The notes under the pieces are model-generated. The model worked only from the letters and a program-made list of their open reading frames with translations, was not told the DNA's origin and did not search any database. Shown here in pieces: positions 18,106 to 39,352 of a stretch of 64,000 nt of DNA. This stretch comes from an uncultured Pirellulales bacterium (GTDB taxonomy: Bacteria; Planctomycetota; Phycisphaerae; Sedimentisphaerales; Anaerobacaceae): the NCBI GenBank assembly GCA_964439135.1, contig CAYTNN010000001.1, positions 3,252-67,251 on the forward strand, written 5' to 3'. The translations under genes and the position numbers were made by a program. Numbering within the stretch: position 1 is the first letter of the stretch; the number at the start of each line of letters is the position of its first letter.

Positions 18106-18133
18106 ATCAAGTCTCCTGAGTTCTCAAGTGTTA

Positions 18134-18589: not shown

Positions 18590-18616
18590 ATCTGATTCCT
18601 CCGCTGCGGATGCTTT

Positions 18617-19405: not shown

Positions 19406-19429
19406 AACTTTCTCCTTATTCTTTGGAAA

Positions 19430-20242: not shown

Positions 20243-20245
20243 CTG

Positions 20246-20614
20246 TTAAGCCAACTGTGTGTAGACGATTTCATAATCGACGACGATGCCGGTTCCGCTG
20301 GCGTTTTCTGTGCCTGCCTTGAACGAATCCATGCGGAGATTTGCGAATTCCCGGCCACTGCTTGCTATGAGTGTGTGCGTATCACCGTCCATAAATGCAG
20401 CTATCTTATTGATTCTCTCGTCCAGTTTCGCCCGGCTTTTTGCCCGCAACGTGCCGGTCTGTTTAATCTTCCTGCCGCGTCGTCCAAGGTCGATACTCAG
20501 CACGCCGTCCAGTCCGGGTACGGTCCTTTCGATCGAATCCCTGCTGAAGCTGCCGGTGCTAATCTCCAGTGCCTGCTCGTCAAACAACATCTGTGAATCT
20601 AATGTGACTTTCAT
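20246..20614 (-). CDS. phage structural-operon hypothetical protein
   Basis: 122-aa ORF with 3-nt spacing to the next gene. Ends in TAA. Confidence 0.5.
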   Translation of the reverse strand: MKVTLDSQMLFDEQALEISTGSFSRDSIERTVPGLDGVLSIDLGRRGRKIKQTGTLRAKSRAKLDERINKIAAFMDGDTHTLIASSGREFANLRMDSFKAGTENASGTGIVVDYEIVYTQLA

Positions 20615-20632
20615 CTGTCTTCTCTTTGTAAA

Positions 20633-21289
20633 TTAATCCCGCACTAATCTTCCGGCCGCTCCGATCTTGGTGACATCGGCCACTCCGTCTGTGCCGAAGT
20701 CGATACTGAGTCGGCAACGCCCCCTTGCTTTAGTGAAGAGCTTCTGATAGTACAGGCTCTTGTTCCAGTGGTTCTGGTCCCTGGTTTTGCCGGCCAACAT
20801 CGCGCAGACGCTGGATATCACCGCGAAAACAGATGCCAGCCTCAGCACGCTCGTATCCAGAATATCATCGGCGTCGATGTCACTTGCCGGGTTGCCTGGT
20901 TTGATACCGAAATATTCTGTCAACTGAAAACCGACCTCGGCGGCCTGTGGTCCGAACGTGCTGATTCGATAGGATATGTTCGTCGCTGCCGGTGGCGGTA
21001 CGGCGGTCTGCGTCGAATCGGCTCTGACTACCGATATGCTTAGCTGCGTCGCAGAGTCCACCGAGACGATCTCGTACGCTCCATCCAGCGAACCGTCCGC
21101 CGATTGCAGGTAGATGACACCGCCTGCCCGGACCTGAGCGGCGATGAAATCCGCTCCGCCCGCCGTCAATGTCGTGCCGCTGAGTGCCGCTCCGGTACCC
21201 GTCGTCAATACCTGCCACGGCAGGTGCAATTCGCCGAACAGGATCGGCTCGTATTTCAAAATGTCGGCATCGTTTGAAAAAGTAACCAT
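20633..21289 (-). CDS. phage head-proximal structural protein (connector/decoration candidate)
   Basis: 218-aa ORF, the first gene after the capsid gene. Function is positional only. Confidence 0.5.
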   Translation of the reverse strand: MVTFSNDADILKYEPILFGELHLPWQVLTTGTGAALSGTTLTAGGADFIAAQVRAGGVIYLQSADGSLDGAYEIVSVDSATQLSISVVRADSTQTAVPPPAATNISYRISTFGPQAAEVGFQLTEYFGIKPGNPASDIDADDILDTSVLRLASVFAVISSVCAMLAGKTRDQNHWNKSLYYQKLFTKARGRCRLSIDFGTDGVADVTKIGAAGRLVRD

Positions 21290-21312
21290 TTCTTGTGTCT
21301 CCCTGCGAGGGT

Positions 21313-21339
21313 GGAATCCCGCATATAGCGCGGGATTCC
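21313..21339 (-). other. perfect 10-bp stem-loop between the capsid gene and the next gene
   Basis: GGAATCCCGC (21313-21322), a 7-nt loop, then GCGGGATTCC (21330-21339). Flanking GAGG/CCTC extend the stem. No U-tract follows on the transcribed strand. Confidence 0.5.
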
Positions 21340-21376
21340 CATCCTCGTATGTCCCCCCGATAAATCGGGTAAATGC

Positions 21377-22531
21377 TTAGCTGGTGCTTAGATCGCGAAT
21401 CAAACCGTGTGCCGCTTCGTTTTTAAGCTCCACGGTATATTCGCCGATCAGTTCTCCGCACTCATAGTCACCGCTGCTTGCCAGTGGCTTGAAGTGAAAG
21501 CTTCGGCCGGCTAACGGCAGCACGTTGATGCGCGATGAATCCAGCAGCAGTGCAGCATCCTGCGGCATCCAGCGTGTCGTGACAATTTTGCAGATGCCGA
21601 AGTCGCTTTCATAGATGCCGATCATGTCGGTGAAGGTGGTGTCGTTGGCTCCGTACGCCCGGCTGTCGGAGCAAAATGCGTTGATCTTTCGCTTCTGGAA
21701 GCCGCCGACGACGATAAGGTCCACGTTGCCGCTGCTGCTGTCCCAGATTTTCCTGAGCACGTAGTTGATCATCGCCTCGTCGAGGGCGGTGCCGCTGGGA
21801 AAGCCGCTGTCGCCGGTGTGGAAGATGTTTGTCGAGAGGTGCTGGATAATACCCTTCATCGAGCGTCTGACTGAGCCGCTGCCTTCGGGATTGCTCGCGG
21901 GCTGGCCGGCGTTGATGATGGTGTTTTCCAGGTCGCGAACCAGCTCCCGTATGCGTGCCTGCTTTTGGTTGTCAAGTTCATCGGCAAGACCTAACTGGCT
22001 GGCGGCCATGTCCGTGCCGCTAACTTCGACCGCAGCAGTGAATATCTGAGTGTAGTTGCCGCACCGGCTGCGGTTGGTGAACCGCGCATTGGGCTTGTCG
22101 GCGCCTTCGAGAGCCGCATTGCCGAGGATGTTGATCGCCTGGTTGTCGGCGAGGTTCTCGGCAGTGGTGCCGGCGTAACCGCGAACTATCGTAAGCGTAT
22201 TTGTGCTGATGCCGGTCACCAGCATCAATTCCTCGCTGCCTTCGATCTGTATCTGATCGCCGATGCGGAATCTGCTGCCGTTATCGACGACAAAGTCGGT
22301 GTCGGTGCTCGGATCGCTAAACGTGCTGTCATTTACGGCGTCCTTGTTGGGCAGAAGCTCGTCTTCGAGCCATTCGTGATGCGTGCTGGTTGCCTCACGC
22401 ATCGGATCGCCCAGGGCGTTCAGTAAAGGCGTCTCAAAAGGCGAGACTATGCCGACCAGGTCCGATACATCCTCGGCCAGCTCCGGCAGGGTCGTACCTG
22501 CGGAATACGTTGCTTTTCCTGTAAATGCCAT
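21377..22531 (-). CDS. major capsid protein (DUF5309 / SU10-type, HK97-fold lineage)
   Basis: 384 aa. The N-terminal ...VSPFETPLLNALGDPMREATSTHHEWLEDEL matches the TPxLs...heW.eD.L signature I associate with DUF5309 capsid proteins. Strong RBS (AGGAGA). Follows the scaffold and portal genes. Confidence 0.75.
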   Translation of the reverse strand: MAFTGKATYSAGTTLPELAEDVSDLVGIVSPFETPLLNALGDPMREATSTHHEWLEDELLPNKDAVNDSTFSDPSTDTDFVVDNGSRFRIGDQIQIEGSEELMLVTGISTNTLTIVRGYAGTTAENLADNQAINILGNAALEGADKPNARFTNRSRCGNYTQIFTAAVEVSGTDMAASQLGLADELDNQKQARIRELVRDLENTIINAGQPASNPEGSGSVRRSMKGIIQHLSTNIFHTGDSGFPSGTALDEAMINYVLRKIWDSSSGNVDLIVVGGFQKRKINAFCSDSRAYGANDTTFTDMIGIYESDFGICKIVTTRWMPQDAALLLDSSRINVLPLAGRSFHFKPLASSGDYECGELIGEYTVELKNEAAHGLIRDLSTS

Positions 22532-22596
22532 TTGTTATTCTCCTGTTCTGCACTCCGCGATAAATTGCGGAGCTAAGTATGCTTGCTTTTCATGAG

Positions 22597-23121
22597 TTAT
22601 AGAAAGTTTCTTCGCAGTTTCAGATACTCGTGCAAATCCGTTCGGTTGCCGGTTGTTGCAGCTTTTTTCGCCGCCCTTTCGAGCAGTGTCTGATTGTTTG
22701 TCACCCGGTCCCTTGCACCGGCGGTTTTCGTTGGTGCTGCATCAGGGCTGCTGCCGGTGAACAGATATTGCTTTTCCTTCTTCAACTGCTCGATTACGCC
22801 TGTTACATCCGCATCGTTCTTATCCTGCATTCTGGCCCTGGCAATCAGCACAGCCGTCTCCAGATCGACAGCACCCGCGGCGGCTAATTGCCGCATCAGC
22901 TTCTGTTCGGTCTGAATGTCACTCAATTGCCCGGACAGCTCCGCCGTTTGCGAGTTTGCCTGGGCCAATTGCTCGGTCAAAGTTTCGATTTTCTTCTCGG
23001 CACTCTGTGCCCGCTTGCGATAGCGGATGGATTCGGCCACCGGGACAAGCCTCGTATTGTCATTATCACTTGCCGGCGATATGTCTTCTGACAAAATATC
23101 CTGTGTCTCAATCGGACTCAT
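22597..23121 (-). CDS. phage scaffolding protein
   Basis: 174 aa, acidic and coiled-coil-rich (AEKKIETLTEQLAQANSQTAELSGQLSDIQTEQKL). Lies between the portal and capsid genes. Confidence 0.65.
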   Translation of the reverse strand: MSPIETQDILSEDISPASDNDNTRLVPVAESIRYRKRAQSAEKKIETLTEQLAQANSQTAELSGQLSDIQTEQKLMRQLAAAGAVDLETAVLIARARMQDKNDADVTGVIEQLKKEKQYLFTGSSPDAAPTKTAGARDRVTNNQTLLERAAKKAATTGNRTDLHEYLKLRRNFL

Positions 23122-23139
23122 AAACTCTCCTTTTCTGTT

Positions 23140-24690
23140 CTATGATTTCTCGTATCCTAATTCTCTGAGCACCTGCTCAGCAGGCACGCCCAGCTCTTTC
23201 TTGACCTGGGCCTCTTTTAATTTTTCCATCGTATTCTCCGGCAGCGGGCTGGGAAAAATGACCTCGACGTCCCGGTCCTTCTGGTCGGTTTTGTAGATGT
23301 TGGCGGTATCGAGTATTCCCAGGACCATCCGGCAGATTTTCCTTAGCCCTTCGCTGTAGGTGAATCGTTTGCGATCGTTCTTCGAGAGCATTCCCATCAG
23401 CGTCAAACGAAGGGCCACTGCGCTTGTCAGGTTGCCGAGTTTGTTCTTCAGCACGCCGGCGACGAGCGGCGTGACGGAACTGACCTTGTCCATCGCTTCG
23501 CGTATCTCAGCGATATGCAGTCCCTCGCTGGGCGTGGCGGTGTCGCCGCCGAACTCCTCGATCGACGCCTCCGGATTATCTGTGTACCACATCCTGCCGG
23601 GCGCCACGGGCTTGTCCTCGAAGCCCTCGATTCCTTTGCCGAGGTACATTTTGAACGACTGAAACGTGATTCTGCTGGCCCGGTCGCTCAGCCGGGTGTT
23701 CAGCTCATCCTGCAGCGGGACAAGCGGCTCGACATCGCTTATACCTTCGTAGTAGTATGGCTGAGCGATGTTCTGGATATGGACGACCGGCAGAAAGCCC
23801 CACGGCATCCGGCCCTCGGCGACGAGTTGCTTGTCCTCGTACCGCTGCCATGCATTGGCCGAGGTGATCTCGGTGATGGGCACCACCCGGCGATTGTCGC
23901 CGGCCTGCGTGCCGCCCGAGAGGAGTCTTGCAAGAAACGAGTTTTTCCTGCTCAGGGCGTTTTTCTTCTGCCCGAAGTGCTGCACGTAATAACGGATCTT
24001 TTTATAATCGTTTTCTTCCAGGACAGGCAGTGCTCTTGGCGCCTCAATCAGTTCAAGATCGATTGTCTGCGCGAACTGCAGCACATCATCGATGGACCCC
24101 GCATAGCGTCGGTCCGCAGAGAGGGTTTGTGAGGAGGAGGAAGTGATGCGTTCGATGATTTTATCGCCAGGCCTGACGAAACAATCGACAAAGCCGTAGA
24201 CACTTCCGAGCACTGCCATATCCTGGAAAAATCCGATCTCGCCGTTGGCCGCGAACAATGCCTTTAAGATGCTTTCGATTTCTGCACTTTTTGGCTCATC
24301 CGGCGATTTGGAAACGAATGTAATGGGCTTGCCGAACAGGAAATCGACCGCCGCGTTGACTCGCCATGCGATGTCGTTCTCGATGACAACTTCTTTTCGC
24401 TGCACCTGGTTGACGGGTCTTGCTCCGAAGATTCCCGCCTGGCCGGTGTGCATAAGTCCGGTGATTCTTGCCGGCAGGCCGTATTCCTGAGCTTGCGTGT
24501 AGCACCGGCCGGATTCGTTTATCTTCCTGTCGGTGGCACCGGAACCAGCCGTCTCGACCTTCGGGTTGGCATAGTAATCCCACAGCCGCCCGAAATGTTT
24601 CTGGATATCGACTGACTGTGTATCGACGAGCCACTCAAGGTAATCGCCTTCGAGTGACTTATCTTCAAATATATCAAGTTCAAATCCCAT
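23140..24690 (-). CDS. phage portal protein
   Basis: 516 aa. First gene of the operon, with RBS GGGAGAG. Size and its position before the scaffold and capsid genes fit a portal. General resemblance to SPP1-type portals. Confidence 0.7.
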   Translation of the reverse strand: MGFELDIFEDKSLEGDYLEWLVDTQSVDIQKHFGRLWDYYANPKVETAGSGATDRKINESGRCYTQAQEYGLPARITGLMHTGQAGIFGARPVNQVQRKEVVIENDIAWRVNAAVDFLFGKPITFVSKSPDEPKSAEIESILKALFAANGEIGFFQDMAVLGSVYGFVDCFVRPGDKIIERITSSSSQTLSADRRYAGSIDDVLQFAQTIDLELIEAPRALPVLEENDYKKIRYYVQHFGQKKNALSRKNSFLARLLSGGTQAGDNRRVVPITEITSANAWQRYEDKQLVAEGRMPWGFLPVVHIQNIAQPYYYEGISDVEPLVPLQDELNTRLSDRASRITFQSFKMYLGKGIEGFEDKPVAPGRMWYTDNPEASIEEFGGDTATPSEGLHIAEIREAMDKVSSVTPLVAGVLKNKLGNLTSAVALRLTLMGMLSKNDRKRFTYSEGLRKICRMVLGILDTANIYKTDQKDRDVEVIFPSPLPENTMEKLKEAQVKKELGVPAEQVLRELGYEKS

Positions 24691-27980: not shown

Positions 27981-28084
27981 TAGTCATTCCTCATACCTGT
28001 CCCGGAAATAGCCAAATGTAATAAAAATCTACGAAAAGGTCAATTTCACATCATAAAACAAAGTATTTTCCTGAAATAGCCGTA

Positions 28085-28164
28085 TTTCCTATATAGGAAA
28101 ATGCCTGAAATTGAGAAATTTGCTATTGCTTATTTCCTAAAAATACGATATATCCTATATAGGA
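28085..28164 (+). promoter_or_regulatory. two palindromic operator-like sites upstream of the AbiE-like pair
   Basis: TTTCCTATATAGGAAA (28085-28100) is a perfect 16-bp palindrome. TCCTATATAGGA (28153-28164) is a perfect 12-bp core. Their centres are 66 bp apart, in an AT-rich intergenic region ending at the ATG at 28191. Confidence 0.55.
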
Positions 28165-28190
28165 AATAGTCCAATATCAGGAAAATAACA

Positions 28191-29297
28191 ATGAGGCTTA
28201 CAGAAGAACAAGTTATTCAATCTCTTAAAAGCATGGGCGAGCAGTATTCCCCATTGATGATAAATAGCCTTGCGGAGCAGGTTTCTATGCCGGAGGGATC
28301 TCAAGTTGATGCGGTTATTGAGTTCTCAATTCAAAATGGCCCTTCCTTCAAGGCCGTGGCGGAGATTGCACCTGTATCCACTCCGCAGAATATTCTCAGG
28401 AGTGCCCGACAACTTGCTGATTACTTTGGCAAAGCAAAAAAAACAAATATGGTGCCCTTGGTAATCGCTCCCTATATAGGCGCCAAACAGGCTAAGATTC
28501 TGGCGGATAAAGGTATCTCGTGGATAGACCTGTCCGGCAATATGTCCGTAAGGGTTTCGAACCGGGTATATATCGAACGTACCGGCAAGCCCAACTCCTT
28601 CCCCGACACCGCGCCGATCAAAAAGATCTTCCAGGGGACATCGTCTCTTGTCAGCAGGGCGCTGCTCTTGCAGCCGGAAGGCTTCGAATCTTTAACAAAG
28701 ATTACTGACTTTATTACTCAGCGAAGTGGAAAAACCATAATGTTATCAACCGTTTCGAAGGTGCTGAAAAAGCTTGAAGACGAACTCTTGATAAACAGAA
28801 GCAAGTCTCTCATCACGGCGGCTAATCCGGAGAAGCTTTTAGAGAGACTCGCCGAAGGCTACAAGAATTCGACGGAACGAAAAAGACGGAACCCATACAA
28901 ATTCGTAATCGAGGGTATTGAACAATTGTCTGATGGGATGACTGCTCTCAGTAAGGACTATATAGCGTGTGGATTCTATGCGGCGCAAATCAAAGGTATG
29001 GCTGTAACGGATCAGAAGGCGATATTTGTAAAAGATATAGAACAGTTTCGAAGAAAGGCTGAGATAAAGTTGGTTTCAGTCATTCCCGACGCGGAATATG
29101 GAAACTTCATCATCACTGAGACTAATGATCCGGGTGTTTGGTTCAATGCTGATTGGCGAATAACCGGTTCGGTTGTTGACGATATTGAATTGTATCTTGA
29201 GATGATGGTTGATACACCAAGAGGACCGAAGATTGCCGAGCAGCTCAAGCGGCGGATTTTACAGAAAGGCGATAGTAATGGACAGCAGGCTAATTGA
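28191..29297 (+). CDS. putative wHTH regulator/antitoxin partner of the AbiEii-like nucleotidyltransferase (atypical, 368 aa)
   Basis: The central segment SLTKITDFITQRSGKTIMLSTVSKVLKKLEDELLINR looks like a winged helix. Overlaps the downstream NTase gene by 20 nt. Confidence 0.45.
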   Translation: MRLTEEQVIQSLKSMGEQYSPLMINSLAEQVSMPEGSQVDAVIEFSIQNGPSFKAVAEIAPVSTPQNILRSARQLADYFGKAKKTNMVPLVIAPYIGAKQAKILADKGISWIDLSGNMSVRVSNRVYIERTGKPNSFPDTAPIKKIFQGTSSLVSRALLLQPEGFESLTKITDFITQRSGKTIMLSTVSKVLKKLEDELLINRSKSLITAANPEKLLERLAEGYKNSTERKRRNPYKFVIEGIEQLSDGMTALSKDYIACGFYAAQIKGMAVTDQKAIFVKDIEQFRRKAEIKLVSVIPDAEYGNFIITETNDPGVWFNADWRITGSVVDDIELYLEMMVDTPRGPKIAEQLKRRILQKGDSNGQQAN

Positions 29298-30123
29298 GCA
29301 ATTAGCCGAACTGGCGGAATCATTCAACAGGATCGGGCTCAAACCGGTTATCTGTGGCGGTCTGGGTCTCTACCTGTGTTTTCATAAAGCTCAAGGACAA
29401 GCGCGGGAAATGATTCGAGTCACGAACGATATCGATTTGATGCTTACACCAACACAGGTCCTCAAAGAGGCCGAACGGCTGGCTATCGCTGAAACAATAA
29501 CCGATGGCCTGGGATACATTGTGCGCGAAGATTGTGAGTATTTTCAATTTACAAAAGAGCCTGATCAGGACCTGGATATACTTTCGCCGCCAGTTGAGGG
29601 ACTTGAGGTTGATAATTTCAGGGTCAAGATTGTAAAGTCAAAACTGCACGGTCATATTACACCCGAAGCATGTTTCATAGAAGAAGGTTTAAGAACTGTA
29701 TCTTTACGAGAGTTCCTGCCGGAAAGTGAAGAAGGTGGCGGTCTTGAAGTTCATGTACCTTCACCGTCGAATCTATTGCTCCTGAAGCTATTTGCGTTTG
29801 ACGATAGGGACAAAGGCCAAAGTCAGGATTCGGGGCGTGCTCAGGCTCATGCATGGGACATCTATATCACAATTACGTTGGCTACCAGTAGGGGCGATTA
29901 TCTTGAGGGACAAGATTTTCTGGCGAGGCATAAAGATTCGAAGATAATACAAACCGCCCAATCAATTGTTGGAAGTAAGTTTTCATCTATCGAGCATTCC
30001 GGCTGGCACCGTGTGCTCGAATCATCAAATTTTTACCCTGATCTCAACAGGCGGGAAAAAGAAGCCGAACTGGATGAGGCCAGGCGTCGTCTGATCAGGT
30101 GGTTTGATATAGACCGGCAGTAA
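29278..30123 (+). CDS. nucleotidyltransferase, AbiEii/AbiGii (DUF1814)-like toxin candidate
   Basis: VICGGLGLYLC...RVTNDIDLML is the pol-beta NTase GG...DxD motif. LKLFAFDDRD...AHAWDIY resembles the C-terminal K..A...R...D.yD block of DUF1814. ATG at 29278. Confidence 0.55.
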   Translation: MDSRLIEQLAELAESFNRIGLKPVICGGLGLYLCFHKAQGQAREMIRVTNDIDLMLTPTQVLKEAERLAIAETITDGLGYIVREDCEYFQFTKEPDQDLDILSPPVEGLEVDNFRVKIVKSKLHGHITPEACFIEEGLRTVSLREFLPESEEGGGLEVHVPSPSNLLLLKLFAFDDRDKGQSQDSGRAQAHAWDIYITITLATSRGDYLEGQDFLARHKDSKIIQTAQSIVGSKFSSIEHSGWHRVLESSNFYPDLNRREKEAELDEARRRLIRWFDIDRQ

Positions 30124-30155
30124 GCCTGAGATTGTTTGAGTCATTAACATTACTG

Positions 30156-30881
30156 TCACTGGGGCACGCCGATGGCGGCCATGCAGATTGTGCTTTCTTT
30201 GGTGCCGTCGATGTTGATGATGGCGTTTACGTGGTCGTCGTAGAGGGCGCCGACCTCGCATGTTCCGAGGTTCAGGCTGACGGCTGCCAGGGCGAGGTTC
30301 TCGGCGATGTGTCCGGCGTCGAGATAGATATAGCGGTACGCCCGCTGGCCGTACTTCCATTTACAGCGTTCGAATACCGCGGTCCAGATAAAGACCGCCG
30401 CGGCTGTTGCGCACATACTCTGGCCGAGTGCCGCGGCAGCGATTTGTTGCCGGAGGTCACGCTGCTCTAATTGTTCGAGCAGATGAGCCCGGATGGAGTA
30501 GTGATAGACGCCGGGCTCCAGGGCTTTGACGTTGTTGATGATCACATAGGTCTCTATCGGATACAAAGCCCCCGCTGAAGGTGCCGTGCGGAATTCATAG
30601 CCGTCCTCGACTCGTTGGATGCCGGTCGAGGTCCATAAGAGATATGCGAGTTGGCCCTTGCTGATTGGCCTGTCCTGGTAATCGCGGATGCTCTTTCGTT
30701 GTTTGAGCGTCTTATCCAGGCTCATGGGCTGGCCCGGCTCGAACGCCGGCAGCTCGATCTTCTCGGCCTGTGGATACTCCTTATACAAATCTGGCTTTGC
30801 CTCCCAGTCGAGCCTGTGGCCCGGCATTTTTCCCGGATCGTACTTGGTTTCCTTCTGGAATATATCGCCTGTACCGCTCAT
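30156..30881 (-). CDS. SagB-type dehydrogenase / nitroreductase-family protein
   Basis: KQRKSIRDYQDRPISKGQLAYLLW plus the overall nitroreductase pattern. Start is set at MSGTGDIFQKE (30881), because the upstream 40 codons (MDSRFRGNDK...) are read through a REP-like hairpin. Confidence 0.65.
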   Translation of the reverse strand: MSGTGDIFQKETKYDPGKMPGHRLDWEAKPDLYKEYPQAEKIELPAFEPGQPMSLDKTLKQRKSIRDYQDRPISKGQLAYLLWTSTGIQRVEDGYEFRTAPSAGALYPIETYVIINNVKALEPGVYHYSIRAHLLEQLEQRDLRQQIAAAALGQSMCATAAAVFIWTAVFERCKWKYGQRAYRYIYLDAGHIAENLALAAVSLNLGTCEVGALYDDHVNAIINIDGTKESTICMAAIGVPQ

Positions 30882-30974
30882 CTGAACACCTTCGTTTCTT
30901 TCGTTAGTAAAACTGACTCTTATGGAGTCGAACGATATGTTAAATCGTTTGATGACAAAAACATGACATAATTT

Positions 30975-31044
30975 GTCATTCCCGCGAAAGCGGGAATCCA
31001 CTAAATCCGTAATGTTTTTGGATCCCTGCTTTCGCAGGGATGAC
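30975..31044. repeat. pair of inverted REP/BIME-like GC hairpins
   Basis: gtcATTCCCGCgaaaGCGGGAATcc (30975-30999; 8-bp stem with a GAAA loop) and gATCCCTGCtttcGCAGGGATgac (31021-31044). The second is the near reverse complement of the first. Confidence 0.7.
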
Positions 31045-31520: not shown

Positions 31521-31607
31521 TGTAATAATGTGTGATATTTACAAAACTAATTTTATTGACAAAGCACGCTCAAGGGCGGATTGGCAGGCAGGGCAAGGGG
31601 GGCGAAG

Positions 31608-32036
31608 ATGAAACGAATTCATGAAAACATCGCACAGCAGATAAATAACAACAGTCGCGGGCATCGAGGCGGGATAGAGGTGCTCCGCAGCAGGCTGAAT
31701 TTGCTGGCTGGCACGGATAAGCTGCTGATGACCATGTATATCGAGCACGGCAACAGCATCCGGCAGATCGCCCGGATCCGCGGTGTCAGCGAGGCGAGCG
31801 TCGCCCGGAGGATTCGAGCAATTACAAAACGGCTCACGGACGGCCCGTACATCGACTGCCTGAGGAACCGTGACAGACTGACTTGCCGCCAGCTCGCAAT
31901 CGCGAAGGATTACTATCTGATGGGCCTTTCTATGAGACAGATCGCGGCAAAGAGACGCAGGAGCTATTACCATGTTCGCGACATCCTCATCGAAATCCGA
32001 AGCATCGTAACCGCGCCGAAACGCCGGACCGGGTAG
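31608..32036 (+). CDS. phage regulator with two sigma-70 region-4/LuxR-like HTH repeats
   Basis: MTMYIEHGNSIRQIARIRGVSEASVARRIRAITKRL and KDYYLMGLSMRQIAAKRRRSYYHVRDILIEIRSIV are two similar HTH units. ATG at 31608 is preceded by AAGGGGGG. The track start at 31581 is a TTG. Confidence 0.55.
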   Translation: MKRIHENIAQQINNNSRGHRGGIEVLRSRLNLLAGTDKLLMTMYIEHGNSIRQIARIRGVSEASVARRIRAITKRLTDGPYIDCLRNRDRLTCRQLAIAKDYYLMGLSMRQIAAKRRRSYYHVRDILIEIRSIVTAPKRRTG

Positions 32037-32079
32037 CGTTGAGTTTCGTTAGCAATATTCACAATAAGAAGGAGAAGCT

Positions 32080-32730
32080 ATGGCAACGTACAGCATTTCA
32101 AAGACTTTCAAATGGCGGGGCACTGTAACCGACAAGGTCGCCTCGGTCTGCCGGATGTTCGGCCTTTCGCTCGACAGGCTCGCCGGGCAGCGCTTCAAAC
32201 ACTCGTGCCGGCTCGAAATTGATGCCGGTGACATCGTCTACCTCACCGGCCCATCCGGTGCCGGCAAGAGCGTCCTGCTGGGCGAACTTCAGAAGGCCGT
32301 CCCCGCCGGCGAGAGGATTAACCTTGCCGAGATTCCGCTGCCGGACGATAAGACGCTTATCGACTGTATTGACGCTGATCTGGCCGAGAGCCTGCGATTT
32401 CTCAGCGTCGCCGGCCTGAACGACTGCTTCTGCATTCTCAATCAGCCGGTCAATCTCAGTGCCGGCCAGCAGTACCGCTTCAGGCTTGCGATGGCTCTGA
32501 CCGCGGGAAAGAAGTTCGTCTTTGCCGACGAGTTCTGCTCGGGGCTGGACAGCGTCACCGCAGCGGTAATCTCGTATCGCCTGCAAAAGTTCGCAAAACG
32601 CACCGGCACGACTTTCATCCTTGCCTCCAGCCGTGACGACATACTGCTTGACCTGTCGCCCGATGTCCTGGTGGTCAAAGAATTATCCGGCCCCGCCGAT
32701 GTTATCTACAAGTGTGAAAGGAGGAAATAA
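32080..32730 (+). CDS. small ABC-type ATPase (no transmembrane partner)
   Basis: Walker A GPSGAGKS, signature-like LSAGQQYR, Walker B FVFADEF and D-loop SGLD. 216 aa. Confidence 0.65.
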   Translation: MATYSISKTFKWRGTVTDKVASVCRMFGLSLDRLAGQRFKHSCRLEIDAGDIVYLTGPSGAGKSVLLGELQKAVPAGERINLAEIPLPDDKTLIDCIDADLAESLRFLSVAGLNDCFCILNQPVNLSAGQQYRFRLAMALTAGKKFVFADEFCSGLDSVTAAVISYRLQKFAKRTGTTFILASSRDDILLDLSPDVLVVKELSGPADVIYKCERRK

Positions 32731-32731
32731 A

Positions 32732-33466
32732 ATGACAAGCTGTTCTGTTAGTGAGAATCTGCAAATCGTACCGGGCTGTCTCGACGACTACAAGCGGCTC
32801 GCCCACTATCACTACCGCGGCAGTCACACGGGACCCGCTTCGGCGATCTTCGCCCTGAGCCGGGCCGGCTGCAAAACGCCGGTCGGCGTCATCGTCTATT
32901 CGACCGCGCCGGCCGTGCTGGAGCTGCGAAACATCGCGACCGGTCACGTCTTTGCCGGCTTCGACAGGAGCACGCAATTGGCGCTGATAAACGCCAATAT
33001 CCGCCGGATCAGCAGGGTGGTTATCGAGCCTCGGTTCCGTGGCCTTGGCCTGGCGTGCCGGCTGGTCAGAGAAACGATGCCGCTGGTTGATGTCCCAATC
33101 GTCGAGGCACTGGCCGTGATGGGATTGGTCAATCCGTTCTTTGAAAGAGCCGGCATGAAGGCCTACAAAGCAAAGCCGTCCGCAGCCAGCGTGCAATTCG
33201 TAGAGTCGCTCAACATCATTGGCATCGAACAGGCCGGGCTGATCGACCCGGAGCAGGTGCAGCAAAAACTCGATCGGCTCGGCGACTGCGAAGCCCGATT
33301 CATCGAACGTCAAATCCGGCACTTTCTCAAAAGCCACGGCAGACGCAGAGACATGCCGCCCGGCTTAGAACGAACGCGATACATCCTGACAAAACTAACG
33401 GCACGCCCCGTCTATTACATCTGGTTCAATCCAAAACTCACAGATACCGGAGACAACAATCTTTAG
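32732..33466 (+). CDS. GNAT-like acetyltransferase-fold protein
   Basis: ISRVVIEPRFRGLGLACRLV is a beta4 strand plus motif A (R-x-x-G-x-G). ATG at 32732 lies 1 nt after the ATPase stop, with AGGAGG upstream. The longer track ORF (32621) overlaps the ATPase gene. Confidence 0.5.
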   Translation: MTSCSVSENLQIVPGCLDDYKRLAHYHYRGSHTGPASAIFALSRAGCKTPVGVIVYSTAPAVLELRNIATGHVFAGFDRSTQLALINANIRRISRVVIEPRFRGLGLACRLVRETMPLVDVPIVEALAVMGLVNPFFERAGMKAYKAKPSAASVQFVESLNIIGIEQAGLIDPEQVQQKLDRLGDCEARFIERQIRHFLKSHGRRRDMPPGLERTRYILTKLTARPVYYIWFNPKLTDTGDNNL

Positions 33467-33477
33467 GAGGAACAGTA

Positions 33478-34104
33478 ATGCGAGAAACCACAATCCAGAA
33501 TCGAGTATCGAGTATTCCAATCGACAAGCTCACCGCACATCCCGGCAATCCCAACCGGATGAGCAAGAGGAACTTCTCCCGGCTTGTTCGCAATATCGAG
33601 CGGACCGGCCGTTATGAGCCGCTCGTGGTCAGACGGCAGGGCGACGGCTTCCAGATCATCAACGGCCATCATCGCTGCCGGGCTTTGCGGGAGTTGGGCT
33701 ATAATTCTGCCGATGCTGTCGTCTGGGACGTGGACGACGCCGAGGCTGATATTTTGCTTTCCACGCTCAATCGCCTGGGCGGCTCGGACGTGCTGGAGAA
33801 AAAGCTTGCCCTTTTGGAGAGGCTCAATCGCAAAATGCACGCCCGCGAGATGGCGAAGCTTCTGCCGTTCACGCGCTCGCAGATCGAGCGGCTGAAAAAC
33901 CTGAAAGTCCCGTCCGCACCGGCCAATATCTCCGTTAAAAGCTTTGCCGTTCCGATGGTGTTTTTCCTGAGCGATGACCAGCAAAAGATTGTCACCAAGG
34001 CGTTGGCTTCTGTACGAGAGAGCCAAAACGAAAAAACAAAGGCTGCAGGAAACGCCGCGGCCCTTACTTACATTGCCCAACGTTTCATCGAAGGCCCCGG
34101 ATAA
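33478..34104 (+). CDS. ParB/Srx-like N-terminal (nuclease/NTP-binding) domain protein
   Basis: IPIDKLTAHPGNPNRM...LVRNIERTGRYEPLVV...FQIINGHHRCRALRELG is the ParB-like domain pattern. RBS AGGAGG lies 11 nt after the GNAT stop. Confidence 0.65.
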   Translation: MRETTIQNRVSSIPIDKLTAHPGNPNRMSKRNFSRLVRNIERTGRYEPLVVRRQGDGFQIINGHHRCRALRELGYNSADAVVWDVDDAEADILLSTLNRLGGSDVLEKKLALLERLNRKMHAREMAKLLPFTRSQIERLKNLKVPSAPANISVKSFAVPMVFFLSDDQQKIVTKALASVRESQNEKTKAAGNAAALTYIAQRFIEGPG

Positions 34105-34201
34105 TGCCCTGTTACATTCTAAACGAACGGCTTTTATTGAGAGACCAACAAAAGACCATTGAAAGACTATCGAAGCTAATTTTTTTAGGTTGGATTTGAA
34201 G

Positions 34202-34936
34202 ATGAAGATTAAATATGTCCAGTTAGAGTCTGATGCGTTTTTGACGGATATCGACTTCGTTCAGTTCACGCCGGCCGAGAGGGGCTTGTATTGCAGCCTG
34301 ATTCTGCTACTTACCTCTAACGACGGCAAATGCACGTTCGATCCGCAGGCATTGAGTCGGATGTGCAATTGCCAGAGCGTCGAAGAGTTCGAAATAATCT
34401 GGCAGAGAATCTCAAAAAAGTTCCAGCTCCGCAACGGCACAATCCGGCATAAACGCGTCACGCGGGAGCTCGGCAGAGCAAAGAAACTCTTGCAAGCCAA
34501 GCGTAGAGGCGGACTTAGCGCGGCAAGGAAAAGGCAGCAGAGCACCAGCATAGCTGATAGCACTGCTATCGCTAAGGAAAGGGAAGGTAACGTAAAGGTA
34601 AGTAAAGATCTTACGAATACGAATACGGCTGATCACTCAGCTTGTACTTCGGATTCGCTTCGCACTGGCTCGACCACAGGCCAGCAGCTTAGCGCGCTTC
34701 GTTTTAACGATGCGCTTGGCCGGATAATTCCGCCCCGGTCGCGGTCGGACCGGACGTGCTTTCGCAATGTCACTAACTGGCTGGTCGATGGCTGTGCCGG
34801 CGGGCGGTTCAACGCCGAGATTTTCGAACGCGTGCTGGACTACGCCAAGCAGGCCCGGCAGGGCAAAAAGCCCGCCGCCGTGTTTATGGCAATACTCAAA
34901 GAAGAGCTGGGATACGAGAAGAAAGGAAAAAGTTGA
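34202..34936 (+). CDS. DUF1376-like phage replication-associated protein
   Basis: YVQLESDAFLTDIDFVQFTPAERGLYCSLILLL...ALSRMCNC...EEFEIIWQRISKKF resembles the DUF1376 pattern. ATG at 34202 is in frame with the TTG at 34190. Confidence 0.5.
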   Translation: MKIKYVQLESDAFLTDIDFVQFTPAERGLYCSLILLLTSNDGKCTFDPQALSRMCNCQSVEEFEIIWQRISKKFQLRNGTIRHKRVTRELGRAKKLLQAKRRGGLSAARKRQQSTSIADSTAIAKEREGNVKVSKDLTNTNTADHSACTSDSLRTGSTTGQQLSALRFNDALGRIIPPRSRSDRTCFRNVTNWLVDGCAGGRFNAEIFERVLDYAKQARQGKKPAAVFMAILKEELGYEKKGKS

Positions 34937-34952
34937 AAGGAGAACGCGGAAA

Positions 34953-35222
34953 ATGAATGCTGATGTTATGATTGAGGATGTTGAGCCGGCTCGCTGTCGG
35001 ACGATGCGGGCCGAAGCCGAGATCAAGCGCGACCGTTTCGCCCAGCAGCGGGCGGCGTGGGAATGCCTGAAGTTTTTCGAGCAGACGCCGGCCACCGAGG
35101 CGGATTTCCGCATGAGGTTCGCGGGCATGCCTGCCGACGATGTCACGCTACTGAAGGCCTTCTACGGCATTCAAACAGACGCCGAGTTGCTGGCGATGAT
35201 CTGCTGCTTCTGGAACGTCTAA
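34953..35222 (+). CDS. small phage hypothetical protein
   Basis: 89 aa from ATG 34953, with GAAAGGAGAA upstream. The longer track ORF (34767) overlaps the previous gene. Confidence 0.45.
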   Translation: MNADVMIEDVEPARCRTMRAEAEIKRDRFAQQRAAWECLKFFEQTPATEADFRMRFAGMPADDVTLLKAFYGIQTDAELLAMICCFWNV

Positions 35223-35279
35223 GCTGTACACACACCCCAAAGCGGGCGGATCATCCAGCTTGCTGTCACATGTGTCGGA

Positions 35280-36896
35280 TTAGGGCACTACTACTTGAAT
35301 GGAAAAGGTTTTTAAAGGCTCGACACCTTCTTCCCATGATCTGTGATAGACGAGTTCGAGGGTCATCTGTCCTGCGCTTACGGCCTTGAAACGGAAGATT
35401 TCCCAGCCGCCGGCGCCGACCATTGGTGGTTCGCCTGTCTCGGATGACTTGAACTCTGCCTGGCCAAGCTGGACCAGGATAGACTTGCTGTTTTTGGGCT
35501 GCTCCCACCGATAACCGGTTGAGGGATTTGATTCGAGTGTAACGACAAGTATCTCGCCCAGCTCAAGCTCGACTTGTTCGCCGTCATTACCCTCATTGAT
35601 TTCTACAGTTTCAGCCGGCGGGTATACCTCGAGCAGATGTTCGGTAAGGACAGTCAAATCCAGGGCATCTACTATGCCGTCGCCCCAGGGTATCGGGGCA
35701 ATGTCGCACAATTGATTATCTGTGCCCCAGTATTCAATCATGATGTACATGTCGGCAGAATCTACAATCCCATCGCCATTTAGGTCGGCAATATTGTTGT
35801 TCGTGGCTGGCATTCGAACAAGAAATGTTCCTCCAAGCCAGTCATAATCTCGTCGTGTTGGGGGATTCTTGTAGCGATACTCCACACCAAAAATCAGGTT
35901 CTTGTCTGGACTGATAATACCATCCGGCACACCGTCATCGTCAAGATGAAATTCATTTCCGGGGCCAACAGAGCAATCCTTGCTTTTAACTGAATGTTCG
36001 CCGTCGGAATAATTGGCATCCACCAATAGGATTCCATTGGCATCATCAACAGCCTCTATGACACAGGTTCCCTGGCCGCAGGTGTAAGGGACAGCGCCGG
36101 GGCCGGTTTCAAGAAATCGAACCTGATAGGTACCTACAATATCAGCCATTGTTATCGCCTGGTCCGTTTTCTTGATGAAAATGTTGTATCCCAAATCACC
36201 ACTTCTGCCTTCTTCAGGAACAATTTGCCACGCGGATCCGATACCCCCCTTGCCGAGAAAGAGTGCAGCATGTCCAATGTCGTTTATCATAGGTCCAACG
36301 ATATTTATTATGGCGTTTACGTCATCGAGGGTCCAATTTATTATGCCGCCGGGCTCAATACGGCCATCAGCGTTCGTATAAGTAAGTGTTGAGGTACCAT
36401 TGGGGTCGAATGTAAAATTCCCCCATTCACAACTATCAGATGGCAATGGGTATATGGTCATCGAGTTTACTTGATGACCCAAAAAGCTATGGTCACCGAG
36501 AACATCATTAACATCTACATTGGTTGCTTTACGCGTGAAGATATCGATTCCTTCCCCGCCTCCACCAAGAACACTTCCCGCATGAATCATCACGTCGCCA
36601 TTCCAGGCAATATTATAAGTCTCGGCCGGAAAATTGATATTGATCGACCCATCCTGCTGGAATGTAGTGGTGAAAGTCTCCGAGAACATATGATTGCCGT
36701 CGTAGTCCTCCCAGTGCTGAAGCCATTGATTACCGGTGATCGACACGGTTCCCCGTTTAGCCCAGGGCGCATTCGTATTGACATCAACACTGAGACTGCC
36801 GAACCAATACTGCCCGCTTAAGTTTGGACTGCCGAACGAAACAGCAGACAATAACATAACGATTGCGATAACACTTTTTGTGATTGACCGTTTCAT
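35280..36896 (-). CDS. secreted protein with dockerin-like repeats and a C-terminal chagasin-type (I42) peptidase-inhibitor domain
   Basis: Signal peptide present. DLNGDGIVDSADMYIMIEYW...WGDGIVDALDLTVLTEHL are dockerin-like repeats. VVTLESNPSTGYRWEQ...GAGGWEIFRFKAVSAGQMTLELVYHRSWE carries the NPTTGYxW signature of inhibitor family I42. Confidence 0.7.
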   Translation of the reverse strand: MKRSITKSVIAIVMLLSAVSFGSPNLSGQYWFGSLSVDVNTNAPWAKRGTVSITGNQWLQHWEDYDGNHMFSETFTTTFQQDGSININFPAETYNIAWNGDVMIHAGSVLGGGGEGIDIFTRKATNVDVNDVLGDHSFLGHQVNSMTIYPLPSDSCEWGNFTFDPNGTSTLTYTNADGRIEPGGIINWTLDDVNAIINIVGPMINDIGHAALFLGKGGIGSAWQIVPEEGRSGDLGYNIFIKKTDQAITMADIVGTYQVRFLETGPGAVPYTCGQGTCVIEAVDDANGILLVDANYSDGEHSVKSKDCSVGPGNEFHLDDDGVPDGIISPDKNLIFGVEYRYKNPPTRRDYDWLGGTFLVRMPATNNNIADLNGDGIVDSADMYIMIEYWGTDNQLCDIAPIPWGDGIVDALDLTVLTEHLLEVYPPAETVEINEGNDGEQVELELGEILVVTLESNPSTGYRWEQPKNSKSILVQLGQAEFKSSETGEPPMVGAGGWEIFRFKAVSAGQMTLELVYHRSWEEGVEPLKTFSIQVVVP

Positions 36897-37196
36897 TTCG
36901 CCTATCTCCTGTATTTTGTATGTTCTGACATTTCCAATTTAGCGATACCTGACTGCATCGTGCATCTTACGCGCACCTTTCGCGGCATATTTTATTTCGA
37001 TCAGATTCCGCTGATTGCAAGTCATAAGCGAGTTTCTCCTCCAAAAAGCCTATTATACGGGTAAAGAACAGCTTTCTTAATTATGCACAAATCAACTCAA
37101 TTTGTCAAGTGTGTTGATGTATTTTTCCGGACTATTGGTTTACATAAGAAGGCTCCGAGAGCATAAAATCGCGTTAAGATAGGTAATAACTCGGCT

Positions 37197-37352
37197 GATT
37201 TTCGACCAAAAGCGATGGTAGTTGGAAGTAAAAATAAAAAAGTTTAGAAAAATTTTTATTCCATATCAAACAAGGACTTACAGAATAAACACTGTCTACA
37301 ATTTTGTAGATTTTCGCATCAAACGCGCAGGTACGTTCAATTATGGGGGGGG
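37197..37352 (+). promoter_or_regulatory. conserved upstream element, copy 2 (upstream of the 109-aa/DnaB operon)
   Basis: Reverse complement of 24779-24932. The identical 42-bp block is at 37292-37333. The palindrome TCTACAA-TT-TTGTAGA is at 37295-37310. A G8 run (37345-37352) lies at the operon-proximal end. Confidence 0.6.
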
Positions 37353-37428
37353 CGGCTTTTTTTCGGCCGGGGCCGAGAGCCGGTCGCCCGAAATGTGAAT
37401 ATAGCAGCCTGGGACCGGGATTGAACGG

Positions 37429-37758
37429 ATGGTTTCGAATAATAGTGACATTATGACCTGTCACGAGCAAGAGCTACAAGAGATGCTTGAGATCGGCCTG
37501 TATCTCGGTTCCGGGCCGCGATACCTGCTCTATTATTACGGGCAGCTTGCGATTACCAATGGCGTTGGGTTGAATCGTTGGCCGGAAGGGCCGAAGGTGG
37601 TCGTCGCCGTTATCAAGGCTCAGGAATGTGCGGGCGGGCTCAGCCCGGCGAGAAAGGCGTATCTGCTGGCGAAGCTGCGTTCGCTGGAAGATGTCAGGAA
37701 AGTACAAAGCCGGCTCGCGAGCGAGGAAAGAGGCCGGCTCAGTTTGCAAAGGAGTTGA
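37429..37758 (+). CDS. phage hypothetical protein
   Basis: 109-aa ORF ending 1 nt before the dnaB ATG. Start is uncertain. Confidence 0.45.
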   Translation: MVSNNSDIMTCHEQELQEMLEIGLYLGSGPRYLLYYYGQLAITNGVGLNRWPEGPKVVVAVIKAQECAGGLSPARKAYLLAKLRSLEDVRKVQSRLASEERGRLSLQRS

Positions 37759-37759
37759 A

Positions 37760-39112
37760 ATGTCAAAGAAGGATGTCACTATGCCGTTACGAGAGCTTCC
37801 GCAGTCGATAGCAGCCGAGGCGGCGGTGTTGGGCTCGATCATACTCGATCCGGCATGCCTTGCCGAGGCGGCCGAGCTTCTCTGCGTCGAGGCGTTTTAT
37901 TATTACGAAAACCGTGCGATATACGAGGCGTTGCTGCGAATCTCCAACTGTGGTGACGGCGGATCCATCGATTGCGTGCTGCTACGGGATGAGCTGGTCA
38001 CGATGGGCAAAATGGAGGAGGTCGGCATAGAACATCTCGTAAAGATAATGGATAGCGTTCCGTCGGCCGCCAACGCGATATATTACGCGAAGATAGTCAG
38101 AGAAAAATACCTGCTTCGCAAGCTGATTGCAGCCAGCAAGGACATCTGCGAGAAGGCGTACGAGCAGGGCGAGACGGTTGATGAGCTTATCGATATGGCC
38201 GAAGCGAGCATCTTCGCAATTGGCCGGCAGACTCAGGTTTCGACTATGCACACGCTGAGCGAGTTGCTGCCTTTGGCATTTGAAGCCATCGAGATGCGTG
38301 ACCCGAACAGCCTGACGGGATTATCGACGGGATTCTATCAGTTGGATGAGATAACATGTGGCCTACAGAAGGGCGATGTGATTGTGATGGCGGCTCGCCC
38401 GAGTATTGGCAAAACGTCGCTGGCACTGAACATTATCGAGAACCTGCTAATCGGCGAAGATGTGCCGGTCGCTTTGTTCAGTCTTGAGATGGGCGGCGTG
38501 CAGTTAGCCGAGCGGATGATGAGTTCCCTTAGCCGATTGGAAAATCAGAAGGTCAGGAAAAATCATCTGAACGACAAAGACTACGCCGAGCTGGCGGACG
38601 GTATGGGACGGCTTGTGGAAAGACGCCTCTGGATCGAAGAGGCCTCCGTGCTGACGCCGCTTAGCATTCGGTCGAGAGCCAGGCGTCTGAAGGCCGCTTA
38701 CGATATACAATGCATCGTCATCGACTATTTGCAGCTTATCAGCACGCACGGCCGGCATGAAAATCGCCAGCAGGAAATCACGAGGATAAGCCGGTCGATC
38801 AAATCGCTTGCGAAGGAGTTGGATGTCCCTGTCATATTGCTCAGCCAGCTCAACCGGGCGCCTGCCGGCCGCAGCAACTTTATGCCGAGGCTGACCGACC
38901 TGCGTGAGAGCGGCAGCATCGAGCAGGACGCCGATGTCGTTTTGCTGCTGCATCGGGAGGATTATTACCATAAGGGACAGGCCGATTACTGTAATACCAA
39001 CGTGGCGGATATTATCATCGCCAAGCAGCGAAACGGCCCAATCGGAGCGATAAAACTGACGTTCCGCCCGGAATTGTCGAGATTCGAGAGCTATGCGCCT
39101 CCGGAGCAATAA
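37760..39112 (+). CDS. dnaB: replicative DNA helicase DnaB
   Basis: LPQSIAAEAAVLGSIILDP (DnaB N-terminal domain), Walker A ARPSIGKTSLALN, LFSLEM, IVIDYLQL, and SQLNR...DLRESGSIEQDADVV. ATG at 37760 follows GGAG. Confidence 0.9.
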   Translation: MSKKDVTMPLRELPQSIAAEAAVLGSIILDPACLAEAAELLCVEAFYYYENRAIYEALLRISNCGDGGSIDCVLLRDELVTMGKMEEVGIEHLVKIMDSVPSAANAIYYAKIVREKYLLRKLIAASKDICEKAYEQGETVDELIDMAEASIFAIGRQTQVSTMHTLSELLPLAFEAIEMRDPNSLTGLSTGFYQLDEITCGLQKGDVIVMAARPSIGKTSLALNIIENLLIGEDVPVALFSLEMGGVQLAERMMSSLSRLENQKVRKNHLNDKDYAELADGMGRLVERRLWIEEASVLTPLSIRSRARRLKAAYDIQCIVIDYLQLISTHGRHENRQQEITRISRSIKSLAKELDVPVILLSQLNRAPAGRSNFMPRLTDLRESGSIEQDADVVLLLHREDYYHKGQADYCNTNVADIIIAKQRNGPIGAIKLTFRPELSRFESYAPPEQ

Positions 39113-39127
39113 AAAACGAAAAATCTC

Positions 39128-39156
39128 TTGACAAATCACTCGGAAATGCCGATAAT
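39128..39156 (+). promoter_or_regulatory. sigma70-like promoter candidate
   Basis: TTGACA (39128-39133), a 17-nt spacer, then GATAAT (39151-39156), just downstream of dnaB. Confidence 0.45.
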
Positions 39157-39352
39157 ACTTATTAATAAGGTAGTGACAGGATGATTTCATCTCGAAATTT
39201 CTTCCTGAACAATCGGGGCGGCATGCCGCAAAAGAAGTGTAAGTCTTTTTGTTTTAGTACTTTATGTTAGGAGTACTTGTTTCTAATAGGGGTCCCTTTT
39301 TTTCGTTTTTTTGGTGATGTGAACGATTGAGAATAATGAATGAGGTTATGTA

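Follow-up and report, generated by a model that had tools for sequence, protein, structure and literature searches.

A probable AbiE-type toxin-antitoxin pair with a long, three-domain partner protein in a phage-like gene cluster of Sedimentisphaerales

We analysed a 64,000-nucleotide stretch, hereafter the window, from an uncultured Pirellulales bacterium placed by GTDB in the Sedimentisphaerales (GenBank assembly GCA_964439135.1, contig CAYTNN010000001.1). Amid phage-type genes it carries a short accessory module made up of a promoter/operator region and two overlapping genes, of which the first codes for a protein of 368 residues, here called the partner, and the second for a nucleotidyltransferase (NTase) of the DUF1814/AbiEii family. 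The pair is conserved along with its operators, has a patchy, mobile distribution, and decays in a pattern that spares no NTase beside a broken partner. These features, together with the family relationships of the two proteins, point to a toxin-antitoxin module of the AbiE/MenAT class (abortive-infection type), belonging to the long AbiEi_2 or COG4861-type branch, and this is probably what the pair is.

Gene layout and operators

The partner gene (P0001) occupies 28191-29297 and the NTase gene (P0002) 29278-30123, both on the plus strand, confirming the 20-nt overlap (29278-29297) noted in an earlier sequence-only reading of this DNA. For the NTase we prefer the ATG at 29278 over an upstream TTG at 29209, because the aligned homologues all open with MD(x)R and thus fit the former. 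The overlap suggests translational coupling, which would hold the partner and the NTase in a fixed ratio. The features of the module are as follows.

27981-30155, plus strand: whole accessory module, comprising the promoter/operator region and two genes, bounded by the DUF4186 start and the nitroreductase gene end
28067-28118, strand not applicable: operator unit 1, with outer TTTCC at 28067-28071, inner palindrome O1 (TTTCCTATATAGGAAA) at 28085-28100 and a degenerate GAGAAA at about 28113-28118
28126-28154, plus strand: predicted sigma-70-type promoter, with -35 TTGCTT at 28126-28131, a 17-nt spacer and -10 TATATC at 28149-28154
28133-28184, strand not applicable: operator unit 2, with outer TTTCC at 28133-28137, inner palindrome O2 (TCCTATATAGGA) at 28153-28164 and outer GGAAA at 28180-28184
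28191-28580, plus strand: partner residues 1-130, PD-(D/E)xK-like domain (from Foldseek; D40, E58, Ala60)
28626-28865, plus strand: partner residues ~146-225, winged helix-turn-helix domain (from sub-threshold helix-turn-helix profiles and Foldseek)
28866-29270, plus strand: partner residues ~226-360, AbiEi_2-type C-terminal domain, the putative antitoxin domain (from PF09952 on relatives and hhalign)
29278-30123, plus strand: DUF1814/AbiEii-family NTase, 281 residues (from PF08843), with the T49 codon at 29422-29424

Upstream of the partner gene, the sequence-only reading had reported a perfect 16-bp palindrome and a related 12-bp palindrome 66 bp away, and both are present as O1 and O2. They share a core, TCCTATATAGGA, that starts at 28087 and again 66 bp further on at 28153; these are its only two matches in the window at up to one mismatch (0.07 expected; two or more in none of 100 shuffles). 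The same region holds six TTTCC/GGAAA pentamers within 131 bp as against 0.23 expected, a number reached in none of 5000 shuffles. Pentamers and palindromes together make up two units of ~52 bp, each with an outer half-site, 18 bp, an inner palindrome, 18 bp and another outer half-site, the outer half-sites being inverted relative to each other within each unit. O2 overlaps the predicted -10 element and the expected start site, and the outer GGAAA at 28180-28184 coincides with the Shine-Dalgarno sequence AGGAAAA.

To gauge conservation we used an alignment (A4) of 31 upstream regions, whose partner proteins are 44-94% identical to that of the window. Near-invariant in it are the distal palindrome ATTTCCTATnTAGGAAAT, the proximal palindrome ATATCCTATATAGGAAA and the flanking TTTCC/GGAAA half-sites; each O1 column is either invariant or conserved to at least 90%, and both operators are kept in at least 27 related loci. 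The same holds for a TTGACA-like -35, the 17-nt spacer and TATATC, a stretch that includes an invariant CGATA; the -35 reads TTGCTT in the window and TTGACA in many relatives. Since synonymous sites within the gene are free to vary in the same loci, this non-coding conservation reflects selection. The palindromes thus appear to behave like operators, as had been proposed, with the proximal one lying on the predicted promoter.

A third, internal operator candidate in the partner gene, CCTATATAGG at 28472-28481, was rejected: it encodes a conserved P-Y-I-G motif, in which synonymous positions are free to change among 37 loci. Among the loci that diverge most (L025, L026, L028, L030-L032 and L036) the outer TTTCC/GGAAA is replaced by TTGCR/YGCAA and the distal inner palindrome is retained, while the proximal palindrome is degenerate in four of the most divergent loci. 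This half-site swap may represent a shift in operator specificity. The accompanying covariation of the outer half-sites (TTTCC to TTGCR) was considered as a compensatory change and discarded as too asymmetrical.

Family relationships and domains of the two proteins

The NTase matches the AbiEii/DUF1814 model PF08843 over residues 24-200 with 27.0 bits (cut-off 22.5, E 5.3e-6), in agreement with the family assigned to it from sequence motifs alone; these motifs are all present in the protein (VICGGLGLYL, RVTNDIDL, DLDIL and LKLFAFDDRD...AHAWDIY). A first search recovered 349 relatives, nearly all of them from metagenome-assembled genomes of Planctomycetota (Sedimentisphaerales/Phycisphaerae), of which about half have a precomputed PF08843 match and several are named AbiEii/AbiGii toxin family. 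Among 38 homologues, G27-G28, T49, D51, D53, D100, K170, R177, D194 and Y196 are invariant or nearly so. The polymerase-beta-type NTase core (G27-G28, D51-I-D53 and D100) is invariant or at least 90% conserved, and the invariant K170, R177, D194, Y196 and T49 constitute a C-terminal K...R...D.Y motif and a threonine two residues before the catalytic aspartate. The catalytic residues remain invariant in homologues down to ~64% identity. An AlphaFold2 model of the NTase has a mean predicted local distance difference test score (pLDDT) of 68, with the central sheet below 50; its best Foldseek match in the PDB is 5uvd, an NTase-like protein of the fungus Paracoccidioides (E 5.5e-4), followed by MenT1 (8rr5; probability 0.98, E 2e-2, template-modelling scores 0.31/0.45). 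A PDB sequence search with the NTase profile gave no match. The window's own genome codes for three other PF08843 matches (C153:1388-2050, C23:24855-25106 and C59:10906-11028; L039-L041), the best of which, at 96.8 bits, scores far above the NTase of the window; the PF08843 scan of that genome left the latter unflagged.

The partner can be connected to AbiEi_2 (PF09952, which equals COG4861; PMC7251935) through its relatives. We compared by hhalign the alignment of the Sedimentisphaerales subfamily (A1) with one of six partner-type proteins from Planctomycetota, a plasmid and an integrative and conjugative element (ICE), five of which individually score above the PF09952 cut-off (25.1-68.9 bits). 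The two (A1 and A5) align with 99.5% probability (E 8.6e-23) over 310 columns, reaching residue 359. An exhaustive profile search yielded 1,679 clusters of relatives (at 50% identity), mostly of 350-380 residues and aligned end to end. Nine of 67 diverse relatives match PF09952, which falls on the last ~145 residues: in one relative (P0413), which the partner finds by BLASTP at 2e-38, it covers residues 197-345 with 26.3 bits. Conversely, bona fide AbiEi_2 proteins of other Planctomycetota (361-385 residues, 28.7-68.9 bits on PF09952) match the partner family profile over the N-terminal and C-terminal domains alike. TBLASTN of the partner against plasmids detected full-length relatives with 96-97% coverage and E-values down to 3e-11, and RefSeq calls the plasmid and ICE relatives “type IV toxin-antitoxin system AbiEi family antitoxin”; directly after each comes an NTase named “AbiEii/AbiGii toxin family”. 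The full-length BLASTP match of the partner to the Haematobacter plasmid protein has an E-value of 2e-18; that protein scores 36.7 bits on PF09952 over residues 203-349, and the Haematobacter and Klebsiella pairs both pass PF09952 and PF08843. These comparisons place the partner as a divergent member of the long COG4861/AbiEi_2 class, directly upstream of a PF08843 NTase in an AbiE-type bicistron. Its supposedly atypical nature holds in comparison with the well-studied COG5340 AbiEi proteins; as a kind of its own it does not stand, given the hhalign and BLASTP matches to AbiEi_2. The canonical AbiEi (COG5340; Pfam AbiEi_1/3/4) has no match in the partner or the 67 relatives, nor is there an AbiEi chain among the top 50 Foldseek matches. 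PDB sequence searches with two partner profiles (A1 and A3) gave no match, and the PF09952 model finds none in the window's own genome.

Three domains can be discerned in the partner. Its AlphaFold2 model has a pLDDT of 67, with a confident N-terminal domain (residues 1-130, about 80). In Foldseek searches, this N-terminal domain of the model adopts a restriction-endonuclease-like fold, matching the nuclease domains of EndoMS/NucS, Card1 and Cdn1 with probability 1.0 and E-values of 2.6e-3 to 6e-2 over ~118 columns. The catalytic triad is incomplete in the window protein, which has D40 and E58 and bears Ala60 at the position of the catalytic lysine; the corresponding D, E and K are kept in 58, 59 and 45 of the 67 diverse relatives, and position 60 toggles between A, K, V, T and R among close relatives. 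An essential nuclease activity is therefore unlikely in this protein. The sole nuclease match in Pfam is to TnsA-like endonuclease N, by one of the 67 relatives (E 0.006). The sequence-only reading had suggested that the N-terminal domain may add a new function; an addition it is not, for the domain is common to the ~1,700 clusters of 350-380-residue relatives and to bona fide AbiEi_2 proteins, and is ancestral to the long-antitoxin class.

The central winged-helix-like segment noted in the sequence-only reading finds support in profile and fold matches. In the partner itself Pfam reports nothing above threshold here, HTH_Crp_2 and MarR scoring below it at residues 186-218; HTH_Crp_2 is matched by 20 of the 67 relatives, and the modelled fold resembles MarR, Fur and Zur. 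With a mean pairwise distance of 0.31, as against 0.48 for the N-terminal and 0.44 for the C-terminal domain, the winged helix-turn-helix is the slowest-evolving part of the pair, which would fit a conserved protein-operator pair. A fold search of the partner against BFVD returned nothing beyond generic PD-(D/E)xK-like and winged helix-turn-helix viral proteins.

Some further features of the partner deserve mention. The segment spanning residues 110-156 (28518-28658), GISWIDLSGN...RTGKPN..PDT.PIKKIFQG.S.LV.R, shows the highest conservation in the whole family, and D113, G116, N117 and R156 are invariant in all 67 diverse relatives. In alignment A1, close relatives carry one of two sequence forms over residues ~232-258 and ~283-300, and a further stretch with alternative forms lies at ~60-88. 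In L010 the partner is ~75% identical where the neighbouring genes are 85-96% identical. These observations suggest mosaic alleles or fast evolution of the partner.

Genomic setting, mobility and decay

The flanks of the module are phage-type, with genes for an SU10-type major capsid protein (21377-22531), an SPP1-type portal (23140-24690), a Gp80-like fibre protein, ParB_N and DUF1376, among which metabolic genes (GH5, PfkB, DUF4186 and nitroreductase) are interspersed; the phage-like cluster spans 13583-24690 and 31581-47000 of the window. The capsid gene is single-copy in eight of eight genomes holding related loci, at 79-94% identity, and 99 of the 121 genomes that were sampled from the order possess it. 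Its identity follows taxonomy: most members of the window's own family show 79-86%, other genomes as little as 57%. The cluster in these 99 genomes is likewise single-copy, with a syntenic gene order that includes the neighbours of the pair. For these reasons the cluster looks like an ancient, fixed phage-derived element and not a recent prophage, and it may be a particle system akin to gene transfer agents; the searched literature contains no paper that ties Sedimentisphaerales to the latter. The earlier description of the pair as prophage cargo can accordingly be kept in so far as it denotes an accessory insert in a phage-derived cluster, and given up as regards a recent prophage.

The partner, on the other hand, occurs in 16 of the 121 genomes of the order, and its best matches lie outside the window's own family, at 55-57% identity in f5 and f7 as against 44-51% in f1. 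The GC content of the module is 0.43-0.47, that of the flanks 0.53-0.58. The pair occurs in both orientations and at no fewer than four positions of the cluster's variable slot: between the DUF4186 and nitroreductase genes, between the nitroreductase and HTH-sigma genes, between g281 and DUF1376, and between the HTH-sigma and DUF4186 genes. In one locus (L029) it follows the tail genes, and in two (L009 and L012) the DUF4186 and nitroreductase genes adjoin each other, with the module at the far side of the latter. In two genomes (G024 and G074) the pair is megabases away from the capsid gene, and two others (G049 and G106) have a partner and no capsid match. Taken together, these patterns mark the pair as accessory and horizontally mobile, inserted into the cluster's variable slot. 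No terminal repeats or target-site duplications were found around the 2.2-kb module, which has no mobility gene of its own. Carriage by known sequenced phages is unsupported, because no relative of the partner was found among 50,697 phage records. Related genomes (Type C loci) also differ in the orientation of the segment containing the pair, as inversion could produce.

In 32 of 38 loci the NTase directly follows the partner, mostly overlapping it, with both near full length. Three loci record decay: L005 retains the partner and has lost the NTase but for ~20 codons, L009 has an NTase cut off at about residue 148, and in L034 the proximal operator, the start codon, an internal stretch of the partner and all of the NTase are gone. 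No locus combines a broken partner with an intact NTase, and the decay pattern thus agrees with toxin-antitoxin logic. L003 and L005 share the metagenome-assembled genome Zod_Metabat.683 and a GH5-PfkB-DUF4186-partner-nitroreductase context; the derivation of both contigs from one bin suggests that strains with and without the toxin coexist. Among close loci, the divergence of the NTase correlates with that of the C-terminal domain of the partner at r 0.72, of the N-terminal domain at 0.61 and of the winged helix-turn-helix at 0.51, values confounded by shared ancestry and hence only suggestive of co-evolution between the C-terminal domain and the NTase.

Proposed function and its alternatives

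A functional model can be outlined for an AbiE/MenAT-class module. The winged helix-turn-helix of the partner would bind the TTTCC/GGAAA-based operators as a dimer or higher oligomer and, with the proximal operator covering the predicted -10 element and start site, such binding would repress its own bicistronic operon. The N-terminal domain, having lost the catalytic lysine, would most likely serve in dimerisation or DNA contact and not in cleavage. The AbiEi_2 C-terminal domain would neutralise the NTase by direct binding, by inducing auto-phosphorylation of Thr49, or both, as happens to MenT1, MenT3 and AbiEii, in which a Ser/Thr two residues before the catalytic aspartate is the phospho-acceptor. 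An NTase freed from the partner would attach nucleotides to the 3' ends of tRNAs and bring translation to a halt. Both the tRNA and the phosphorylation step are carried over from MenT1, MenT3 and AbiEii (PMC11375011; PMC10435456; bioRxiv 10.64898/2026.01.19.700257). DNA binding, repression, toxicity, the tRNA target and phosphorylation, as well as a role in phage defence, are predictions.

The notion of COG4861 gene pairs with COG4849/DUF1814 goes back to predictions of Makarova et al. and Dy et al. 2014, the latter of whom noted that DUF1814 genes adjoin regulators of either COG5340 or COG4861, two families without sequence identity to each other (PMC3985639). The closest comparisons are with COG4861-type pairs such as those of the Haematobacter massiliensis plasmid pOT1-8 (WP_232831352.1 and WP_112309830.1), beside Tn3-family and IS21 transposase genes, and of a Klebsiella pneumoniae ICE region (WP_004150897.1 and WP_004227625.1). 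These share with the pair of the window full-length homology of a partner of ~350-370 residues with a PD-(D/E)xK-like N-terminal domain, a winged helix-turn-helix and an AbiEi_2 C-terminal domain, its gene being followed by that of an NTase of ~230-285 residues with a weak PF08843 score. Unlike them, the partner of the window is too divergent for a direct PF09952 match and is 22-26% identical to the annotated ones; the NTases align solely around motif III in pairwise BLASTP (E 0.004), and the Planctomycetota subfamily is set apart by a conserved operator architecture of its own and by its place in a phage-derived cluster.

The AbiEi-AbiEii pairs of Streptococcus agalactiae and Lactococcus (COG5340-COG2253) are likewise bicistronic, with a winged helix-turn-helix antitoxin upstream of a DUF1814 NTase, and have the antitoxic function in the C-terminal domain of the antitoxin, as we would expect for the partner. 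AbiEi is established to autoregulate via inverted repeats in its promoter (PMC3985639, PMC7319586), and the pair of the window would do likewise. However, AbiEi is shorter, has its winged helix-turn-helix at the N-terminus and lacks a PD-(D/E)xK-like domain, and the partner has no detectable sequence similarity to it (Pfam AbiEi_1/3/4 and PDB chains); the operators of the window differ in layout, the unit of a palindrome and its outer half-sites being present twice at a distance of 66 bp. On the toxin side, Mycobacterium tuberculosis MenT1, a COG4849-type DUF1814 protein, has a conserved core of T39, D41, K137 and D152, and its T39 is auto-phosphorylated when the antitoxin is present (PMC11375011). 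These residues correspond to T49, D51, K170 and D194 of the NTase, with the same geometry of a threonine two residues before the catalytic aspartate. MenT toxins lengthen the acceptor stems of tRNAs and lose their activity when the antitoxin induces them to phosphorylate themselves (PMC11375011, PMC10435456). MenT1 is much shorter, though, with a chain of 176 residues as against 281, and the structural match is weak; its antitoxin MenA1 differs from the partner in being small, lacking a winged helix-turn-helix and not autoregulating (PMC11375011).

The pair is thus a new divergent member of a predicted class and not a new kind of system, and as such it will not surprise the specialist. In the searched literature, the COG4861/AbiEi_2 branch of the AbiE/MenAT superfamily has been known since 2014 from gene-neighbourhood statistics alone. 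Together with ~1,700 clusters of relatives, the locus makes a clean test case, having a three-domain antitoxin, conserved operators, an invariant candidate phospho-acceptor (T49) and toxin-deletion variants. As the partner family is almost wholly labelled “hypothetical protein” and escapes Pfam, NCBIfam and PADLOC, censuses of defence and toxin-antitoxin systems under-count it in Planctomycetota.

Several points weigh against the assignment to AbiE/MenAT. The partner itself does not match PF09952 even at E <= 1, nor any AbiEi Pfam model, and its C-terminal third, the putative antitoxin domain, is poorly modelled by AlphaFold2. The margin of the NTase over the PF08843 cut-off is just 4.5 bits, and its fold matches are weak (E 5e-4 and 2e-2) because the model is mediocre. 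Neither protein matched NCBIfam or PADLOC-DB 2.0, in which the 38 NTase homologues likewise yielded no match to an AbiE model; PADLOC does not call the pair. No experimentally characterised member of the COG4861 branch was found in the searched literature, the decay statistics comprise three loci only, and a consensus promoter scan did not list the predicted promoter, which was deduced from conservation alone; the scanner requires a T at position 6 of the -10 element, where this sequence has a C. Finally, 25 of 38 loci have one or more cluster genes within 6 kb of the pair, an association that a plain toxin-antitoxin role leaves unexplained.

The same association lends itself to a different explanation, namely that the pair is a regulatory or maintenance component of the phage-derived, possibly gene-transfer-agent-like cluster, with the winged helix-turn-helix controlling cluster genes and the NTase acting on a cluster-specific substrate. 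In keeping with this, the pair takes its four or more positions, in both orientations, always in or beside the same variable slot, and has neither mobility genes nor terminal repeats of its own. Against it, the cluster evidently functions without the pair, since it is present in 99 of 121 genomes and the partner in only 16; the pair can lie megabases from the capsid gene or occur in genomes with no capsid match; the operator palindrome is found in the window solely before the pair itself; and a plasmid and an ICE carry distant homologous pairs that have no phage cluster in their vicinity. We hence regard a role as cluster component as quite improbable. Less likely still, to the point of being very hard to credit, is that the module is a decaying or domesticated remnant, with an NTase that is inactive or repurposed and a partner that is merely a transcription factor. 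The natural deletion and truncation variants (L005, L009 and L034) and the borderline Pfam match of the NTase would be in line with this, but the window and 32 of 38 loci keep both frames intact, the catalytic residues withstand divergence to ~64% identity, and the architecture of operators and gene overlap is preserved.

The fold of the N-terminal domain raises another alternative, in which the partner is an active effector or sensor whose PD-(D/E)xK domain cleaves or senses foreign DNA, either in a two-effector defence system of nuclease and NTase or as a DNA-triggered release of the NTase. Besides the Foldseek probability of 1.0 for a restriction-endonuclease fold, this can draw on the ~88% conservation of D40 and E58, on the ExK lysine retained in 45 of 67 diverse relatives, on the invariance of D113, G116 and N117, and on the N-terminal domain being the fastest-evolving one, as might be expected of a part that meets phage factors. 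The window protein, however, has an alanine in place of the catalytic lysine, at a position that toggles in close relatives, the Foldseek E-values are modest (~3e-3), and Pfam supplies no nuclease match save that single TnsA-like one; an active effector or sensor is accordingly unlikely. We give similarly little credence to a broader, joint proposal that the N-terminal domain of all COG4861-type partners is a DNA-sensing or DNA-cleaving trigger that releases or activates the NTase, and that the subfamily is functionally tied to the order-wide cluster. The trigger would then be foreign or packaged DNA, or DNA ends arising from the firing of the phage-derived particle cluster. If true, the long-antitoxin branch of AbiE would be a sensor-coupled system.

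Downstream of the pair, the nitroreductase open reading frame (30156-31001) begins with a GTG that adds an N-terminal extension of ~40 residues, the Pfam domain starting at residue 99. The spacing in L012 suggests that the true start is an internal methionine (MSGTGDIFQ...), giving a protein of ~241 residues.

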